UHGV virus genome: UHGV-0040088
DNA from: a virus
Length of the DNA stretch: 39,518 bases
Strand: one strand, 5' to 3'
The notes under the pieces are model-generated. The model was not told the DNA's origin and searched no databases. It saw nothing but the letters and a program-made list of their open reading frames with translations. Shown piece by piece: positions 13,190 to 28,491 of the stretch. Made by a program: the position numbers and the translations under genes. Numbering within the stretch: the stretch's first letter is position 1; every line of letters starts with the position of its first letter.

Positions 13190-13666
13190 ATGTCTCAGAC
13201 TTGTGAAAAAGGTTCGTTTTTAGGCCGCGACGTTGCTGTATTCTACGCTATCGCTTGCCCTAATGCGAAACCGGAAACTGATGCGTACAAGGCGTTAGGA
13301 ATGATGCGCGGTAAATCTCTTTCCGTGGAATGGGAAACCGCAGACGCAACCGCTGATAAATCAGCAGACTATACCAAAGAATCACTGGTAACTTACAAGT
13401 CCGTTTCTTTCTCAGGTGACGGCGTATCCCGCACCGAAGAAATCCACAATCAGAAGGCACTTAAACGCCACGTTATTAACCCTGGAGAAACAACTGGATC
13501 GCAACCTTATGTGTGGCTAAAACTTGTTTCCCCGCTTGATGTGACAGAGGGTCCGTTCCTTTGCACCTCCTTTAAAGAAGAAGATCCGCATGACGATGTG
13601 TCCACCTGGTCCATTGAGTGCGAAAGCGCTGGCAAAGTCACAGTCGGCGATGTTCCGGCGGTGTAA
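13190..13666 (+). CDS. major tail (tube) protein
   Basis: 158 aa, strong SD (AAGAGGT), followed by a perfect palindromic terminator; position before chaperone and tape measure. Confidence 0.65.
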   Translation: MSQTCEKGSFLGRDVAVFYAIACPNAKPETDAYKALGMMRGKSLSVEWETADATADKSADYTKESLVTYKSVSFSGDGVSRTEEIHNQKALKRHVINPGETTGSQPYVWLKLVSPLDVTEGPFLCTSFKEEDPHDDVSTWSIECESAGKVTVGDVPAV

Positions 13667-13708: not shown

Positions 13709-13720
13709 AAGGTGACAGCT

Positions 13721-14401
13721 ATGATCCATGTTCGAACCGGACAATTTGCGGCTGTAGTCAATGGCAGGCGGTATGTGTTCAATCCCTGCTTTGCTGCAAT
13801 GGCTAAGATCGGCAGTGACAGGGAATTAGTCGAATACTTCGCAACTGTGCACGGTGGAAATTACCCACGTCGATTACCTACAGATCCAGACCTCAGCAAT
13901 CGCATTATGGCGCGGTGTTATGGTGAGTTAGTGCAAACATCCATCCACATACTGAAATGTTGCTCAGAGGAAGAAATAGGCCCGTTATTGGGTGAATGCA
14001 GGTTTACTACTTCGGGTAAGTTGAGACTAAAACCCGGATTGATGCCTACCAGTGACGTTATCACGCTGGCGCAACACTGTATGTATCACGGTTTAATTGG
14101 TGACGGTCCAGAGGAAGACACGGGCGAAAACCATGATGGCGAGTACAAGCCCGCATTCGACATCCTTGAATACGTTTACTCCGCCGTTGCTCACCTTGGA
14201 TTGTCTGAGTCTGAAGCGTGGGGCATGACAATGACCGGATACAGGGCCGCAGTACGCGCTAAAACGCCTCCAGACGAAAGAAACGAGAAACGTAAGCCAA
14301 ACGTTCAGATAAATAAACGTGATTATGATGAGCAAATGGAGGCCGCTAAGAGGGTGCTGGAATTTATGAAAAAACGCGAGCAAGAAAAAGCCCGGAATTA
14401 A
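13721..14401 (+). CDS. putative tail assembly chaperone
   Basis: Position between tail tube and tape measure; AAGGTGA SD before ATG 13721. No frameshift site confirmed. Confidence 0.4.
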   Translation: MIHVRTGQFAAVVNGRRYVFNPCFAAMAKIGSDRELVEYFATVHGGNYPRRLPTDPDLSNRIMARCYGELVQTSIHILKCCSEEEIGPLLGECRFTTSGKLRLKPGLMPTSDVITLAQHCMYHGLIGDGPEEDTGENHDGEYKPAFDILEYVYSAVAHLGLSESEAWGMTMTGYRAAVRAKTPPDERNEKRKPNVQINKRDYDEQMEAAKRVLEFMKKREQEKARN

Positions 14402-14421
14402 CCGGGCCTTTATCTTTATTT
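14390..14421. terminator. bidirectional terminator between tail chaperone gene and minus-strand cassette A
   Basis: Stem gcccgg/ccgggc, loop aattaa, A-run upstream and T-rich run downstream. Confidence 0.6.
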
Positions 14422-14718
14422 GTATGCCGCAAATCTGCATCTTGCTTCATCCAGGTCATGAATATCGTACACGTTATCGTAAATGTAAGTTGCGACCTGT
14501 GCTTTCTGTACGTCAGTTGCGTTCGGGAACTCCATGCTTACGAAAGTAACTGCATCAACGTAGTGTTTGAACATCTTTTTGTTAACGCACAGTGCGTAAA
14601 TCAATACAGCAGGCCAGCAAATCAGCGCACCAAAGAATGCCAGGAGCATATTAAGATGTTTTTTCTGAGCTACAACCATAGTTGCGATAAAGCCGATGAA
14701 GCAAATTACCAGTTCCAT
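14416..14718 (-). CDS. cassette A: small inner-membrane protein (100 aa, two predicted TM helices)
   Basis: AAGGGGTG SD; two hydrophobic segments (LVICFIGFIATMVV and LLAFFGALICWPAVLIYALCV) then a soluble tail. Confidence 0.55.
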   Translation of the reverse strand: MELVICFIGFIATMVVAQKKHLNMLLAFFGALICWPAVLIYALCVNKKMFKHYVDAVTFVSMEFPNATDVQKAQVATYIYDNVYDIHDLDEARCRFAAYK

Positions 14719-14728
14719 GATACACCCC

Positions 14729-14836
14729 TTAATTACGTTTGTCTTCGGTTGTCATTGCCAGCGCCAGTACAGCCATCACATTAAATGCTAACCATGCTGT
14801 AATATATACATCTATAACCGTTTTGATTGTTTCCAC
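14729..14836 (-). CDS. cassette A: possible 35-aa hydrophobic peptide (GTG start)
   Basis: Fills the gap between neighbouring genes; starts next to the upstream stop and its stop supplies the SD of the next gene. No ATG. Confidence 0.25.
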   Translation of the reverse strand: METIKTVIDVYITAWLAFNVMAVLALAMTTEDKRN

Positions 14837-15187
14837 TTATGCACCAGCCTTGATCCTGTTATGGATTGCGAACCCCTTAATTTCGCCGTCATGAATAACT
14901 TTGAGTACGTCAGGATCTTTTATTCCGTCAATCATATCTTTGTATTTTTCGTGGATCCTGTGTTTTTCTACAACCTCTTTATGTAGGAACGGTACTACCG
15001 CCTTATAATTGCACGCTGCGTTGTATATGACCTCCATGTACCCCATCCCTTCGCCGTATCTTATGTCGTATAGTTCTGCAGCAAATGCGCATTCACGTTC
15101 CGCTTTTTCAATCTTGTTATCTGCGTTCGCGTTGAATGCTAAACCAACCATTAACGCTACCATTGCCGCTTTGATTAACCGTTTCAT
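14837..15187 (-). CDS. cassette A: secreted (periplasmic) protein with cleavable signal peptide
   Basis: N-terminus MKRLIKAAMVALMVGLAFNANA-DN is a classic Sec signal with AxA site; mature part has two Cys; GAGCGGGGTGG SD. Confidence 0.6.
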   Translation of the reverse strand: MKRLIKAAMVALMVGLAFNANADNKIEKAERECAFAAELYDIRYGEGMGYMEVIYNAACNYKAVVPFLHKEVVEKHRIHEKYKDMIDGIKDPDVLKVIHDGEIKGFAIHNRIKAGA

Positions 15188-15199
15188 AATCCACCCCGC

Positions 15200-15286
15200 T
15201 CATTTCTTGTTTTTAAGTGCTTTCAGCATTTCTTCGATAAAGTCGGTATAGCGTTCATGCTCGTTGGGTCGGTAGTAGCCTTTCAT
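15200..15286 (-). CDS. cassette A: 28-aa leader ORF
   Basis: AAGAGGA SD then ATG; MKGYYRPNEHERYTDFIEEMLKALKNKK; its stop overlaps the SD of the secreted-protein gene. Confidence 0.35.
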   Translation of the reverse strand: MKGYYRPNEHERYTDFIEEMLKALKNKK

Positions 15287-15443
15287 TTTCTTATCCTCTT
15301 TTGCTTCCTCCGGTTAATCCGGCCTTTTAAGTCCCTTTACTCTATCCCTTTCCTTTAGCCTCTTTATACAAAATGGAGTCGTTATAGTAAAGACAATTTG
15401 TATAAAATAGAGATCTAGATCACACTTTTCATGAGGTTAAATC

Positions 15444-17792
15444 ATGGCAACTAGTTTAGGTACAATTTACTACGAAGTTGATGCAAAAACTGGTCAACTT
15501 CTCGTTGCTCAACGACAGGCAGACCAGGCTTTTGACAGCATCGAGCGTGGCGCAAAACGCGCTGACCGCCAGGTGAACACGCTTAAGACTTCAATCAAAG
15601 CGCTATCCAGGGTTATCCATTTGCTACTTGCTGCGGAGGCTGTACGCCAGTTTATTGACATGGCGGAGCAAGCGAAAATGCTTCGCGTAAAAATCAAAAT
15701 GCTTACTGGTGATACGGAGGCTGCCGGACGTGTTTTCGATGGCCTGAAAGAAATATCAAAAGAAACCGGGCAAAGCATGAAGGATACTGGCGAACTGTGG
15801 CAAGGCCTTGCTATATCGCTAAAAAACACATCCGCTACTGAAGGCCAATTGCTAAACCTGGTCGGTACGATTCAGAAAATGGGTGCATTAGGCGGAGCGT
15901 CAGCGGAACAGATGTCTAACTCTATGCGCCAGTTCCGCCAGTCTATAGACGGCGGCGTGCTGCGTGCTGAAGAGTTTAACAGTCTGCTTGAAAACACGCC
16001 AACCATCGTACAGACAATGGCTCGCCATATGGGGTTGTCAATGGGCCAGTTCCGCGCCGAAATGCTGGACGGCAAGATCACGGCTGAAAGGATGGTTAAC
16101 GCGATTCAGGCGGCTACACAGGAAACAAACGAGAAGTTCGCACAGTTGCCGCGCACATCCGGCATGGCCTTCAATGAGCTAAAAGTTGAGGTGATGGGAC
16201 TTGTCGAACAGCTTGACGATCTTTTCGGCATATCTGACGGCGTTGTGTCAGCAATAGACTTAATCACTGGCGGCGTTGAGGGATTAGGTAAGGGCGCAAA
16301 ATTCGCCGCAACATGTTTCAATACACTCAAAACCGCTGGTAGCGAGTTCATCGACATGTTTGACGATGTTGCTGTTAAGGCTGGCGAGGTTGCTGAAGAG
16401 ATTATCAGGATGGTAACGCCAATCAAGGCGCTAATGGATGGGTACAAATGGATGAAGGAGATCATTGACAAACGCAAGGAAGAGCTAAACAGCAACAACG
16501 AGAAGAAATTCGGCCCCACCATTGGCAAATTCATGACATTCAAGAATGACATAGAAAAAGCCACAGCCGCCTATGACGAGTTCATGCAGAAACAGGGTGA
16601 GGCTGACGATGGCAAGATCACCGGATTCGATCAGCCAGTTGGTAAGCCCAAAAAAGGCAAAAAGGGCAAAAATGACAAGAAATCTGAAGCTGATCGGCTT
16701 GGTGATGAAGGCATAAAAGTGTCCGACCAGTACAACAAGGACGCCGCCGCCATGCGTAAAGCGCTGGAGAACGGCAAGGCCATTGATGCTGCGTTCGCTC
16801 AGGGCAAAATAACCCTCCTTGAGTACAAGGCCGCGCAGAAAGGGATAGGCAAGGAGCTGAAGGACGAATTGGCGCAAATCCCTGTTGATGAGCTACGCGA
16901 CAAATGGGATCACATAGTCAGCCCGATGGATCAGCTTAAGGGAGAAATTGACCCAATCAAGCAGGCGCAAAATGAATGGGCCGTTCGAAAACAAATGCTG
17001 ATAGACCTTGGCGCTACAGAGGCGCAACAGAAACAGGCGCTATTGGAATACGAACAACAGATCAGAGATCTGAAATGGGAGCAATGGCAGGCGCAAAGCG
17101 AAACAAACGGCCTGATTGGTGCTTGCGTTAGTGGCCTGAAAGGTGGAATGGGCAACGCCCTTACCGGCCTACTAAACGGTACTCAATCGTTAAGCGAGGT
17201 TTTCGCCAACCTGGGAAGTAGCATACTTAACACTGTTGGCAACAAACTATCAGAAATTGCCGCCAACTGGATAGCAGATCAGTTGATGATGGAAACGCAA
17301 AGCAAGGCTACCCAGGCAAGTACAACGGCTGGCGCTGTTGCTGCCCAAGGCGAGATTGCGGCGGCGGCTATCCCGGCGGCGGCGGCAACGGCTGCGTCAA
17401 CTGGTGGTAGCTGGGCGGCGGCTGGTGCTGCGGCGCTTTCTGCGATCATGTCACTGGCAACGTCAATCTTTGGCGGCGGGCGTTATAATGGTGGCTCTGT
17501 TAATGGTGGTAGTCTGTATCGCGTAGGGGAACACGGGATTCCTGAGTTATTCCAGACTAGCAACGGGCGTCAGTATATGATTCCTGGCGAGAATGGTAGG
17601 GTAATTCCTGGTCGCGATCTCTTCAGTGGTGGCGGCATCAACATGCCTGTTAACATCACTGTCCAGACCACAAACGGATTTAGCGACGAAGACAGTCGCA
17701 GACTTGAACAGACGATGGAACGCGTCGCAATGAAAATGATGGCAAGGGAATCGCAACGGCCCGGAGGGATGTTACAACCTCGCAGGAAATAA
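15444..17792 (+). CDS. tail tape measure protein
   Basis: 782 aa, highly alpha-helical with a Gly/Ala-rich C-terminal region (GGGRYNGGSVNGGS); position upstream of M-L-K-I-J. Confidence 0.85.
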   Translation: MATSLGTIYYEVDAKTGQLLVAQRQADQAFDSIERGAKRADRQVNTLKTSIKALSRVIHLLLAAEAVRQFIDMAEQAKMLRVKIKMLTGDTEAAGRVFDGLKEISKETGQSMKDTGELWQGLAISLKNTSATEGQLLNLVGTIQKMGALGGASAEQMSNSMRQFRQSIDGGVLRAEEFNSLLENTPTIVQTMARHMGLSMGQFRAEMLDGKITAERMVNAIQAATQETNEKFAQLPRTSGMAFNELKVEVMGLVEQLDDLFGISDGVVSAIDLITGGVEGLGKGAKFAATCFNTLKTAGSEFIDMFDDVAVKAGEVAEEIIRMVTPIKALMDGYKWMKEIIDKRKEELNSNNEKKFGPTIGKFMTFKNDIEKATAAYDEFMQKQGEADDGKITGFDQPVGKPKKGKKGKNDKKSEADRLGDEGIKVSDQYNKDAAAMRKALENGKAIDAAFAQGKITLLEYKAAQKGIGKELKDELAQIPVDELRDKWDHIVSPMDQLKGEIDPIKQAQNEWAVRKQMLIDLGATEAQQKQALLEYEQQIRDLKWEQWQAQSETNGLIGACVSGLKGGMGNALTGLLNGTQSLSEVFANLGSSILNTVGNKLSEIAANWIADQLMMETQSKATQASTTAGAVAAQGEIAAAAIPAAAATAASTGGSWAAAGAAALSAIMSLATSIFGGGRYNGGSVNGGSLYRVGEHGIPELFQTSNGRQYMIPGENGRVIPGRDLFSGGGINMPVNITVQTTNGFSDEDSRRLEQTMERVAMKMMARESQRPGGMLQPRRK

Positions 17793-17936: not shown

Positions 17937-18461
17937 TTATGTGCCATGATTAACACCATAATATTTTTCTTCTAAAAACATCCTGTAAGCTACTGCATCA
18001 CCGAAATCGTCAAAGTATTTATTGCTTTTTCTTTTTCCGTTCACAGCTATATACACCCTCCACTGCTCCCTAGACTTGCACCACGATACACCACGAAAAC
18101 CGCTAGTATTGTTTGACTTTATTTTCCCACTCCTTACGAAATCAGCACAGTTATCAACCTGATAACCTATGTTAAGGTTTTCTATTCTATCATCACCCCT
18201 TACGTCGTTAATGTGCCTTATTACATGCTCATCAGGTATCGGGCCGTGATGCATTACCCATATAACTTGATGTCTATAGTAATTTCTCTTTTTATACGTG
18301 AATATGTAGTAACCGTTTTTATTCCTGGCGCCCACCGGACCCGGTTTTCTTCTTCCTCCATTTTCACATATTAAAGTTTTCCAATATATGTTCCCTTCAC
18401 TGTATATAAACAAGTCATTCCAGTTTATGCTATTGACCATGTCGTGATTTATTTGTGACAT
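17937..18461 (-). CDS. HNH homing endonuclease (HNH plus AP2-like)
   Basis: Motifs HQVIWVMHHGPIP, RHINDVRGDDRIENL, FRGVSW..QWR; AT-rich relative to flanking tail genes. Confidence 0.85.
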   Translation of the reverse strand: MSQINHDMVNSINWNDLFIYSEGNIYWKTLICENGGRRKPGPVGARNKNGYYIFTYKKRNYYRHQVIWVMHHGPIPDEHVIRHINDVRGDDRIENLNIGYQVDNCADFVRSGKIKSNNTSGFRGVSWCKSREQWRVYIAVNGKRKSNKYFDDFGDAVAYRMFLEEKYYGVNHGT

Positions 18462-18703
18462 CCCTTAACCCCTGATAATTCATTAAATTTATGGTGCTCA
18501 ACTATTGCCCACACTTTTAGATCCTTGCTGTACACTCGCCAATCAAGGTTGGCACGGAATGCGTAGCCGTATCCGTCTTTCAGTTTTTTGGGTGCTACGT
18601 CTTTCCTCAAGAACGCGTCCAGAAGTTCTTTTGCTTTTTTGACTACATGATCAGGTGCGTTTTTCTGTGCTTTCAGATTTTTACCAATCGCTACCAATTT
18701 CAT
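18449..18703 (-). CDS. hypothetical protein (84 aa); faint RelE/ParE-like pattern
   Basis: GGGGTGGG SD; C-terminal pattern RANLDWRVYSKDLKVWAIVEHH loosely recalls RelE-family toxins; overlaps the HNH start by 13 nt. Confidence 0.45.
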   Translation of the reverse strand: MKLVAIGKNLKAQKNAPDHVVKKAKELLDAFLRKDVAPKKLKDGYGYAFRANLDWRVYSKDLKVWAIVEHHKFNELSGVKGCHK

Positions 18704-18721
18704 AACCCACCCCGCAATCCA

Positions 18722-18877
18722 TTAGTTGACCACTTTCAGGAAGAAATCACGGTACTCATTTTCCTTCGCGTTCATCATGAATTGACCGTATTTGAATGCG
18801 TCATCAAAGCCTTTGACTATCGCCACCTCCACCTGTTCGAATGCGTTGTTCAGCATTACCACTACATAACGCTTCAT
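18722..18877 (-). CDS. hypothetical small protein (51 aa)
   Basis: Perfect AAGGAGG SD; MKRYVVVMLNNAFEQVEVAIVKGFDDAFKYGQFMMNAKENEYRDFFLKVVN; its stop provides the SD of the 84-aa gene. Confidence 0.4.
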   Translation of the reverse strand: MKRYVVVMLNNAFEQVEVAIVKGFDDAFKYGQFMMNAKENEYRDFFLKVVN

Positions 18878-19694: not shown

Positions 19695-19943
19695 TCATAA
19701 CGCACCCTTCAAATATGCCAATCCCTTATCGGTGACGAATGAATGGTTAACCTGGTTTTCATCCGTCATGATGATGAATAACTTTTCCTGTAGGTATTTC
19801 GCTTTCGGGTACAGCGTTAAACAGACCTGGTACAGTATCCCGCGCTCAATCAGCAAATCAATAAATTCGTGTTCATGATAACCGACGAGGCGGGCGGCCT
19901 GTTTCAACGTGTACACATAATCGCCGTGATTGCGCCGCCCCAT
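19695..19943 (-). CDS. cassette C: small putative HTH DNA-binding protein (82 aa)
   Basis: Segment YTLKQAARLVGYHEHEFIDLLIERGIL looks like a helix-turn-helix; AAGGCGG SD. Confidence 0.45.
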   Translation of the reverse strand: MGRRNHGDYVYTLKQAARLVGYHEHEFIDLLIERGILYQVCLTLYPKAKYLQEKLFIIMTDENQVNHSFVTDKGLAYLKGAL

Positions 19944-19952
19944 GTTGCCGCC

Positions 19953-20303
19953 TTATTTATCGAACGCAGACAAATTGTCGATACAGAAATCTTTTGCCGC
20001 TTTTTCGTATTCGCGTTTTGCTTGCGGATTGTCTGCCGGGAAACCTTTTGCGTGTATTTCACCAGGGCAAGCCTGATCCATAGAGTCGGCAAATTCAACA
20101 TTGACGTTAAAGTTAATATCTTTCGGGTTCATCTCTTCCACCTTATCCGGCACTTGCACCGGAATAACATAATAATCACGAGCACCAGACCAACAGCGGA
20201 GCAATTCACAACCTTCATTACGCGCTGATTCGAATGTGTCAAATAGTCCTATGCTTTCCCACTCACATTTATCAGTCCACACGTCTAATCTGTATTTTTG
20301 CAT
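19953..20303 (-). CDS. cassette C: hypothetical protein (about 117 aa)
   Basis: Start at MQKYR (20303) avoids overlap; alternative ATG at 20357 gives 134 aa. Several Cys; no recognised motif. Confidence 0.5.
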   Translation of the reverse strand: MQKYRLDVWTDKCEWESIGLFDTFESARNEGCELLRCWSGARDYYVIPVQVPDKVEEMNPKDINFNVNVEFADSMDQACPGEIHAKGFPADNPQAKREYEKAAKDFCIDNLSAFDK

Positions 20304-20316
20304 TTTTGTTAACCTT

Positions 20317-20472
20317 TCATTTGGCAGGTTCGATCCTGTATCCCAAAACGCGGTCATCTTCAGTAAGTAAAAGCGCGTCAGTCAGTGCCTCGCCTTCGTC
20401 TTTATACAGAGCCACAGTCATTTCCCTGCCGCCTGACAGGAATACCGTCAACCTCCACACCTTATCATCCAT
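20317..20472 (-). CDS. cassette C: hypothetical small acidic protein (51 aa)
   Basis: GGAGGTG SD before ATG 20472; MDDKVWRLTVFLSGGREMTVALYKDEGEALTDALLLTEDDRVLGYRIEPAK. Confidence 0.4.
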   Translation of the reverse strand: MDDKVWRLTVFLSGGREMTVALYKDEGEALTDALLLTEDDRVLGYRIEPAK

Positions 20473-20562: not shown

Positions 20563-20600
20563 TTAGCGTGACGGCGATCACAAAATGACAAGGTGAAAAA

Positions 20601-28079: not shown

Positions 28080-28108
28080 TAACCCCGCTTCGCGCGGGGT
28101 TTTCTTTT
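28080..28108. terminator. bidirectional terminator between J and minus-strand lipoprotein gene
   Basis: A-rich run, stem ccccgc/gcgggg, then TTTTCTTTT. Confidence 0.65.
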
Positions 28109-28346
28109 AGTAGTTAGCTACACAGTTAGAAGGGCTACCGATGCGGCGCATGTTGTGATCGAGTTCATGACACCATTGACCAGTATAAGGCAGTTTTTCA
28201 GTGTCATAGACAAGATGACCTTCACCATCATAGACAACATCTTGTGGAATTACTCCGCTATTCGGCAGGTTATGCAATGCGGCCTCTTTGTCAACAGCGC
28301 AACCAGTAAGAGCTACGGCCGCAGAGAATAAAACCACTTTGAACAT
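28107..28346 (-). CDS. small lipoprotein (79 aa), possible receptor-blocking superinfection exclusion factor
   Basis: Signal peptide with lipobox LTGC (MFKVVLFSAAVALTGC); function inferred from position between the J and fiber genes. Confidence 0.6.
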   Translation of the reverse strand: MFKVVLFSAAVALTGCAVDKEAALHNLPNSGVIPQDVVYDGEGHLVYDTEKLPYTGQWCHELDHNMRRIGSPSNCVANY

Positions 28347-28491
28347 GTTTTTTCATTTTTTAATCCTCGTTCTTGTTAGCTCGTCCGGTTCATCCGGTGT
28401 CTTGAATATCCGACAAAACAACATTTCGTATATTGATATAAATCAACAAATACATTTTGTGTAAGCAGAAAATGCAACACAGATCACAAAA

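Follow-up and report, generated by a model that had tools for sequence, protein, structure and literature searches.

An antisense accessory operon in a variable slot beside the tape-measure gene of an mEp021-group coliphage, with superinfection exclusion as its most likely function

The virus genome UHGV-0040088 (39,518 nucleotides, analyzed as one strand and referred to here as the window) is that of a temperate coliphage of the mEp021 ("mEpimmI") group. Its tail operon is interrupted by a cassette of four small minus-strand genes, flanked on one side by a DUF6246 gene and on the other by the tape-measure gene. We found that this junction is a slot in which non-homologous cargo genes are exchanged between fixed ends, and that the cassette combines modules that are found separately in other phages. 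The explanation that we favor, although we would put its chances at only about even, is that the cassette is a moron-type accessory operon in a recombination hotspot, that it is built from stacked, independent envelope modules, and that these most likely function in superinfection exclusion.

Exchange of cargo between fixed ends

We used the DUF6246 protein as an anchor to gather approximately 60 related loci, and extracted the DNA from DUF6246 to the tape-measure gene from each; 53 of these loci belong to the mEp021 group. Over this region the window is 82-92% identical to mEp554, mEp044, mEp021, mEp010, and MagusPhagus. Among coliphage isolates from the human gut, prophages of the mEp021 type are reported to be as frequent as lambdoid phages (PMC11893012).

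The slot was filled in 53/53 mEp021-group loci, by 640-1315 bp with the same two ends. The first position was occupied by C8 (the type in the window) in 8 loci, by C3 (the type of mEp021 gp63) in 16, by C2 in 18, and by C22 and C30 in 1 locus each, and nearly all of these first-position cargos have Sec or lipoprotein signals. The second position held C4 and C5 (12 loci, always together), the lipoprotein C6, the 106-aa protein C9, or nothing. Turnover of the cargo is fast, as even phages that are 90-97% identical in the flanks carry non-homologous types. The first-pass annotation had treated the four genes of the window as one system, but C8 and C4+C5 occur apart in many phages. C8 is found without C4+C5 in loci L004, L042, L047, and L048 and in L070, where it accompanies the lipoprotein C6, and C4+C5 are found without C8 in mEp554, mEp044, L012-L020, L056, L068, and L069. 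Both are present in four loci only (the window, L006, L011, and L027).

The commonest alternative cargo, C2, is a type VI secretion-associated lipoprotein of the VasI/TagO family (PF11319, 57.6 bits), and it alone qualifies for this family, as a Pfam search for PF11319 in the proteins of the window gave no match. C2 is encoded at 1868-2527 of L007, for example, and in 17 other loci (L021 and L031 among them), and RefSeq labels it TagO within a prophage tail operon. We also considered whether C8 and C3 are distant homologs. This was ruled out (hhalign probability 0.3%), and the signal peptide is the only part that the two have in common. As their mature parts are unrelated, it follows that unrelated domains have been exchanged behind a common export signal.

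In the distant DUF6246 phages L066 and L067 the slot is empty and the flanking genes abut, and the cassette is thus extra DNA, as expected of a moron, which in the Juhala/Hendrix usage is an independent transcription unit gained by a phage genome. An empty slot and a cargo that varies among near-identical phages do not fit a conserved structural component, which the first-pass annotation had named as the finding that would count against its proposal, and in the mEp021 record the neighboring genes are flagged as virion structural proteins and gp63 is not. In phages of the Providencia type (L008 and L057-L063, in which DUF6246 is about 40% identical), several kb of other cargo occupies the same junction, including Arc-like ribbon-helix-helix proteins, BRO/KilAC-like proteins, and a BamE-like lipoprotein; the hotspot therefore spans a wider clade.

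The four genes and their products

All four minus-strand open reading frames (ORFs; 28, 116, 35, and 100 aa) are present where the first-pass annotation had placed them (Table 1), and the stop/Shine-Dalgarno (SD) junctions that it described are as it described them. The genes are tightly packed, with a G-rich SD sequence at each and an intergenic spacing of 0-12 nt: between the stop codon of the 28-aa ORF and the ATG of the 116-aa gene are 12 nt that include GGGGTGG, the stop codon of the 116-aa gene directly adjoins the GTG of the 35-aa gene, and 10 nt containing GGGG separate the 35-aa gene from the ATG of the 100-aa gene. The GC content of the cassette is 0.40-0.41, compared with 0.47-0.51 in the flanks, and the GC skew reverses to negative, a shift in composition of the kind by which morons are recognized.

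Records based on PHANOTATE put plus-strand ORFs in the slot, as they might if the minus-strand ORFs were spurious and the region were a non-coding spacer or part of plus-strand genes. This is almost certainly wrong. In a six-frame test, the minus-strand frame was the sole frame open in every homolog and also had the lowest ratio of nonsynonymous to synonymous variation (pN/pS), whereas the plus-strand frames contain stops in many homologs. The signal peptide, the SD sequences, and the operon spacing are kept across the homologous loci. All four genes evolve under purifying selection, with pN/pS values across homologous loci of 0.064 (28 aa), 0.30 (116 aa), 0.36 (35 aa), and 0.17 (100 aa). The deposited plus-strand ORFs are at 2259-2810 in L001 (mEp554), 2743-2847 in L003 (MagusPhagus), and 1429-1530 in L073 (mEp010). 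All three annotations omit the 28-aa gene, and the mEp554 record also omits the 35-aa and 100-aa genes; because the six-frame conservation test so indicates, we regard the plus-strand calls as wrong.

The 28-aa ORF had been described as a leader. It is indeed the first ORF of the operon, but it is more than a leader, as its pN/pS is that of a strongly conserved small protein gene; its variable sites number 7, 3, and 16 at the three codon positions. It is present in approximately 36 of the 53 mEp021-group loci irrespective of the downstream cargo, and no copy was found outside the group among 50,697 phage records. In loci that do not contain it, either a short leader runs directly into the gene for the exported protein or a different small ORF takes its place. 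The peptide is hydrophilic and would form an amphipathic helix. A SecM-like arrest peptide that monitors export was ruled out for this ORF, as it has no hydrophobic segment.

The signal peptide of the 116-aa protein (C8) consists of MKRLIK, a hydrophobic core, and ANA/D, and it leaves a mature protein of 94 aa with two cysteines (C33 and C59) that are conserved without exception in the family, even at approximately 33% identity. There is no lipobox ([LVI][ASTVI][GAS]C): the signal peptide ends FNANA/D, with no cysteine there, at a signal-peptidase-I site. Lipoboxes are present in the other slot cargos C2, C6, and C30. Sequence and hydropathy therefore agree with the Sec-exported periplasmic protein with two cysteines that the first-pass annotation proposed, and hydropathy likewise agrees with its hydrophobic 35-aa peptide (one segment) and two-helix 100-aa membrane protein (two segments). 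The 35-aa peptide (C4) has one hydrophobic helix and nearly no tail. Its gene starts with ATG in 10/10 relatives scored, and the GTG start is therefore particular to the window. In the metagenomic contig L069 (407-633), the 35-aa gene is present as two identical tandem copies before the 100-aa gene. In the 100-aa protein (C5), hydrophobic helices at approximately residues 3-17 and 24-45 precede a helical C-terminal domain of some 50 aa with a net acidic charge. The topology of the protein is ambiguous, as Lys clusters are present both in the loop between the helices and in the flank that follows them.

The proteins of the cassette are orphans, without an informative family or fold match. Among 5.8 billion proteins, a word-index search placed the 116-aa protein in 7 clusters and the 100-aa protein in 8, and 1.84 billion representatives, searched exhaustively with a profile, yielded 5-6 credible relatives of C8; a repetitive 633-aa match at E = 7e-4 in the deep search was judged to be spurious. 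Every genomic context that we examined for relatives of the cassette proteins was the same slot. Scans of all four proteins with Pfam, PHROGs, NCBIfam, and PADLOC gave nothing above threshold, in keeping with the earlier remark that no motif is recognizable. Profile searches of the PDB with the cassette proteins found nothing, a plasmid search gave no match, and tblastn against the 50,697 phage records at E <= 10 returned mEp021-group phages and noise alone. A search of the region with Rfam returned only sub-threshold terminator look-alikes. Structure prediction with AF2, which had been suggested as a check on the secreted protein, gave an all-helical model of modest confidence, and the AF2 models match generic helical bundles only.

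Table 1. Positions of the cassette, its regulatory elements, its neighbors, and the other minus-strand islands in the window
Feature	Position	Strand	Basis or remark
28-aa ORF ("leader"), first gene of the operon	15286-15200	-	ORF; pN/pS 0.064 at pS 0.53
116-aa Sec-exported periplasmic protein (module C8)	15187-14837	-	ORF; signal peptide by sequence and hydropathy
35-aa single-pass hydrophobic peptide (module C4)	14836-14729	-	ORF; GTG start
100-aa membrane protein (module C5)	14718-14416	-	ORF; hydropathy and charge
Bidirectional intrinsic terminator GGCCCGG-TTAATT-CCGGGCC, T-run on both strands	14377-14412	both	Scan and RNA folding
Purine-rich 5' untranslated leader	15287-15362	-	Alignment of 26 unique upstream regions
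Predicted sigma-70 promoter in 13-bp inverted repeat	15363-15406	-	Alignment; -35/-10 tallies
CRP-like box TGTGATCTAGATCTCT (minus-strand reading)	15409-15424		Pattern match
Tail-tube gene	13190-13666		Upstream of the cassette
DUF6246 gene (PF19759)	13712-14401		Upstream neighbor, in tail-chaperone position
Tape-measure gene (PF20155)	15444-17792		Downstream neighbor
HNH_3 + AP2 endonuclease (174 aa), ParE-like toxin (84 aa), and 51-aa possible partner	17937-18877	-	Directly after the tape-measure gene
KilAC/ANT-like short protein (82 aa) and 134-aa protein without assigned function	19695-20357	-	
Lipoprotein (Lpp) gene	28107-28346	-	96% identical to mEp010 gp116

The upstream platform and other antisense islands

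The terminator folds with dG values of -19.5 and -17.4 kcal/mol and z values of -3.4 and -3.9 on the two strands, overlaps the DUF6246 stop codon, and lies 7-10 nt past the last cargo gene. It is found after every cargo type, with variants of loop and stem, and the slot thus has the terminator of its own that is looked for in a moron. The claim that the cassette is bounded by a bidirectional terminator holds for the 3' side; the 5' side, in contrast, is a conserved, putative promoter region that adjoins the ribosome-binding site of the tape-measure gene. With a promoter-like region and a terminator to itself, the cassette has the form of an inserted accessory operon on the opposite strand, as had been proposed. 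Its other neighbor had been called a chaperone gene, a name that fits by position only, as DUF6246 is a family without assigned function.

The 157 bp from the leader ATG to the tape-measure ATG are highly conserved. The left half-site of the CRP-like box, TGTGAT, is invariant in 22 sequence variants, and most loci match the CRP consensus at 15-18 of 22 positions. Relative to the transcription start that the -10 element predicts, the box is centered 60.5 bp upstream, with identical geometry in 53 loci; the CRP site of lac is centered at -61.5. The predicted promoter consists of TTTACT (15391-15386), a 17-nt spacer, and TATAAA (15368-15363), and the group consensus is TTyACT-N17-TATAAA. It lies in the perfect 13-bp inverted repeat TTTATACAAAATG-N18-CATTTTGTATAAA (arms at 15363-15375 and 15394-15406), with the predicted -10 element inside one arm. 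The arms and their spacing are invariant over the 53 mEp021-group loci and the sequence of the spacer varies; the window has one mismatch in one arm. An RNA element was ruled out, as the repeat forms no stable RNA hairpin (z ~0), and it is therefore more likely to be a protein-binding DNA element. A plus-strand promoter based on the mirrored TATAAA was dismissed by eye because it has no -35 element.

The 5' leader that would follow contains a CCGG-ATTAA-CCGG hairpin (15322-15310) and a GAGGA SD sequence (15298-15294). It is 80% purine, which places it in the top 0.03% of windows of the same size, and has 7 GGA motifs; with this composition, it may be a target of CsrA. L014, L027, and L056 have a purine-rich insertion of approximately 93 bp in the leader, downstream of the predicted promoter and upstream of the hairpin.

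Three further minus-strand islands lie inside the tail operon of the window (Table 1), and one of them contains the gene for Lpp. The Lpp of mEp010 (type C) excludes mEp010, mEp044, mEp554, and lambda (PMC11893012). The region upstream of the Lpp gene has four colinear blocks in common with the slot platform: a TGTGATC box, ACAAAATG, a CCGGATGAACCGG hairpin, and GAGGAT-N-ATGAAAAAC. As full-length alignment of the two upstream regions was poor, we claim short colinear blocks and not full paralogy. The putative promoter region of the endonuclease/ParE island has a 16/16 block, TACAAAATGGCTTCAC, in common with that of the slot. A near-consensus CRP-like site, CGTGACGGCGATCACA, is present at 20567-20582, upstream of the KilAC-like island. 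Five of the 21 CRP-like matches in the window lie in four upstream regions that account for 1.9% of the sequence (P = 4e-5, for regions chosen post hoc). These motifs suggest that the slot is co-regulated with Lpp, a known exclusion gene.

The 11-mer TATACAAAATG occurs seven times in the window at <= 1 mismatch, compared with 1.4 occurrences expected, and 0/100 shuffles reached seven. Two of the copies are the arms of the slot repeat, and three others precede the endonuclease/ParE island and the lipoprotein gene; the positions include 15365, 15394, 18950, 28422, 28453, and 36069. In mEp021, three exact copies are present in the early region (L075, 2376, 11925, and 20144), where none is expected, and one of them adjoins a TTGACT-N17-TATATT promoter beside the repressor gene. 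The 11-mer may be a shared operator. A bolder extension, which we think possible but improbable, is that the antisense islands of the mEp021 group form one "moron regulon" under the control of host signals, in which a common platform drives interchangeable envelope modules. The platform would comprise a promoter activated by CRP, an operator-like inverted repeat of TATACAAAATG to which a factor from the phage or the host binds, and the 28-aa peptide, and C8 and C4+C5 would be two new exclusion families that act at the periplasmic and inner-membrane steps of DNA entry.

The Lpp gene region of the window (28107-28360) has a run of six A residues after the SD-proximal ATG, compared with five in mEp010 and MagusPhagus. 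The SD-proximal ATG is thus out of frame and opens a 21-codon upstream ORF, and an in-frame internal ATG (MFKVV...) gives a protein of 79 rather than 82 aa. The extra A could be a frameshift, phase variation, or a sequencing error.

Function of the modules and comparison with known systems

We propose that the slot is a fixed platform into which cargo modules are exchanged. In minus-strand order, the platform would consist of the CRP-like box, the inverted repeat around the promoter, the purine-rich leader with its hairpin, usually the 28-aa ORF, and the distal terminator. The operon of the window would stack two independent modules on it, namely C8, a helical periplasmic protein that would contain a disulfide, and the inner-membrane pair C4+C5. 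In the prophage, where the late operon is silent, host RNA polymerase would transcribe the cassette antisense to it, possibly under the control of cyclic AMP (cAMP)-CRP, and the products would be placed in the periplasm and the inner membrane, where each module would protect the lysogen at the envelope on its own. The most likely action is to block incoming phage DNA as it crosses the periplasm or the inner membrane, and the modules would in this way complement the Lpp lipoprotein, which is encoded after gene J and would act at the level of the receptor. The cargo of the slot, mostly cell-envelope proteins, probably blocks other phages. We infer superinfection exclusion as the most likely function from the envelope targeting, the fast turnover of cargo, the platform in common with Lpp, and the precedent of HK97 gene 15.

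Several observations weigh against this proposal. C9 and cargos of 60-74 aa look cytoplasmic, so the slot is not purely envelope-directed. In a small sample, cargo did not track the receptor (C3 is present both in OmpA-dependent mEp021 and in LamB-dependent mEp010), and, again in a small sample, it showed no pattern with the N-terminal type of the tape-measure protein; as cargo does not co-vary with either, no specific target can be inferred. The AF2 models are of modest confidence, with a pLDDT of 70.6 and 1/5 models confident for C8 and a pLDDT of 73 for the 100-aa protein, which is also all-helical. On the regulatory side, the CRP-like box has a weak right half (TCTCT, against a consensus of TGTGA-N6-TCACA), CRP-like matches are not enriched over the window as a whole (21, compared with 17 expected), and a standard promoter scan made no call on the proposed promoter, because the proposed -10 element ends in A. 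The slot also goes undiscussed in the 2025 paper of the mEp group.

The rival functions differ in what the modules would act on. The cassette could consist of orphan immunity or envelope-protection genes directed against type VI effectors, colicins, microcins, or envelope stress, and thus be a fitness factor of lysogenic conversion. The presence of the VasI/TagO-family lipoprotein as the commonest alternative cargo favors this idea, as does the independence of cargo from receptor and tape-measure type, and the CRP-like box would couple expression to host physiology. Immunity proteins are typically small periplasmic disulfide proteins or small inner-membrane proteins, formats that C8, C4, and C5 match. 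However, there is no immunity-family match in Pfam or NCBIfam and no toxin gene nearby, and the regulatory platform is common to a proven phage-exclusion gene; we consider an immunity role unlikely. A membrane toxin/antidote or abortive-infection module would require the 35-aa peptide to depolarize the membrane and the 100-aa protein to restrain it until infection. The peptide is a single hydrophobic helix, as in type I toxins, the two genes are invariably inherited together and are translationally adjacent, and the ParE-like toxin module in the next antisense island indicates that addiction modules occur in such islands. Nonetheless, the tandem duplication of the 35-aa gene in L069 without an extra partner speaks against a dose-sensitive toxin, the gene lies in a sense operon behind other genes and is not under antisense-RNA control, and PADLOC and Pfam gave no match for the pair, all of which leaves this alternative decidedly improbable.

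Also very unlikely is one integrated four-gene system that blocks injection in the manner of T4 Imm plus Sp, with the periplasmic and membrane proteins cooperating. A periplasmic protein and a two-helix membrane protein are encoded in one tightly coupled operon, and the same four-gene arrangement recurs in three other loci (L006, L011, and L027). Yet C8 and C4+C5 are apart in most of their carriers, and C8 is paired with an unrelated lipoprotein in L070. The resemblance to T4 Imm and Sp that the first-pass annotation had drawn does not extend to sequence, as the tblastn search of the phage records, which covered both proteins, found no similarity to any T4-like phage. Imm is a small two-helix inner-membrane protein and Sp an envelope protein in the periplasm, and each blocks a DNA-entry step. 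The two act independently of each other, and so the analogy itself needs no cooperation. We attach still less weight to the idea that the cassette serves the phage's own lytic cycle, through tail assembly, help with injection, the timing of lysis, or the blocking of receptors on lysed cells. Its location inside the tail operon beside the tape-measure gene would suit such a role, and some prophage envelope genes are described as masking receptors to preserve progeny (cited in PMC12952977). Late transcription would oppose the cassette, however, as it is antisense to the late operon. In addition, phages whose tails hardly differ carry non-homologous cargo, related tail modules exist in which nothing fills the slot, and the mEp021 record gives no virion flag. 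Overall, independent exclusion modules in a moron slot remain the explanation that best accommodates these observations.

If the modules are exclusion or immunity factors, the cassette would add at least two new protein families and several alternative cargos to the envelope-level defenses. The slot offers natural comparisons in which an isogenic backbone carries swapped cargo, from which it could be learned what each module blocks. The common regulatory platform suggests that prophage accessory genes in the group are co-regulated, possibly by the carbon status of the host.

The closest precedent for the location is HK97 gene 15, the archetypal moron, which sits at the junction of the chaperone and tape-measure genes (PMC3594210); it was at this position that the name "moron" arose. 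The view that the chaperone and tape-measure genes are normally contiguous, from which the first-pass annotation started, overlooks this gene. HK97 gp15 is a YebO-like inner-membrane superinfection-exclusion protein that is expressed from the prophage and blocks DNA entry (PMC3594210). The slot of the window is like HK97 gene 15 in its junction, in being extra DNA relative to related phages, in the terminator that follows it, and in encoding a small inner-membrane protein. However, gp15 is a single protein of 62 aa with one helix, encoded on the same strand as the tail genes, whereas the slot holds an opposite-strand operon of four genes and swappable modules that include a periplasmic protein, and its exclusion role is our proposal. 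Neither membrane protein has the build of gp15/YebO, in which a cytoplasmic helix comes after one N-terminal transmembrane helix: two hydrophobic helices are predicted in the 100-aa protein, and the 35-aa peptide is nearly tailless. There is no sequence similarity, as neither gave a BLASTP alignment with gp15 at E <= 100.

The likeness to T4 Imm and Sp is one of concept, a predicted two-helix membrane protein together with a periplasmic protein. Unlike a prophage moron, the T4 genes are part of a lytic phage, and the cassette has no sequence similarity to them. Lpp, which is Cor-like (mEp021 gp81 and mEp010 gp116), is closer in setting, as it is found in the same phage group, is encoded on the minus strand in the tail region, and is targeted to the envelope. 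Its 5' region corresponds to that of the slot from the TGTGATC box and ACAAAATG through the CCGG hairpin to the GAGGAT-ATGAAAAAC start. Lpp proteins are lipoproteins encoded after gene J for which exclusion is experimental (PMC11893012), whereas C8, with its signal-peptidase-I site and no lipobox, has an unrelated mature sequence.

Comparable hotspots occur in other phages. Pseudomonas F10-like phages carry P-FimU between the tube and chaperone genes (PMC12952977), and accessory and defense hotspots are described in P2 and P4 (Rousset et al. 2022, as cited in PMC12952977). These resemble the slot in their fixed flanks, in cargo that varies among close relatives, and in surface protection expressed from the prophage; they differ in belonging to other phage lineages and in having other cargo. 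In a non-exhaustive literature search, we found neither a 28-aa first ORF nor an invariant inverted repeat described for the P2/P4 or P-FimU hotspots. A moron hotspot at this junction is thus of a kind already known, and the location of the cassette has precedent. What is new here is the orphan families, the plug-in architecture behind a common signal peptide, the constrained 28-aa ORF, and the motif platform common to the antisense islands.

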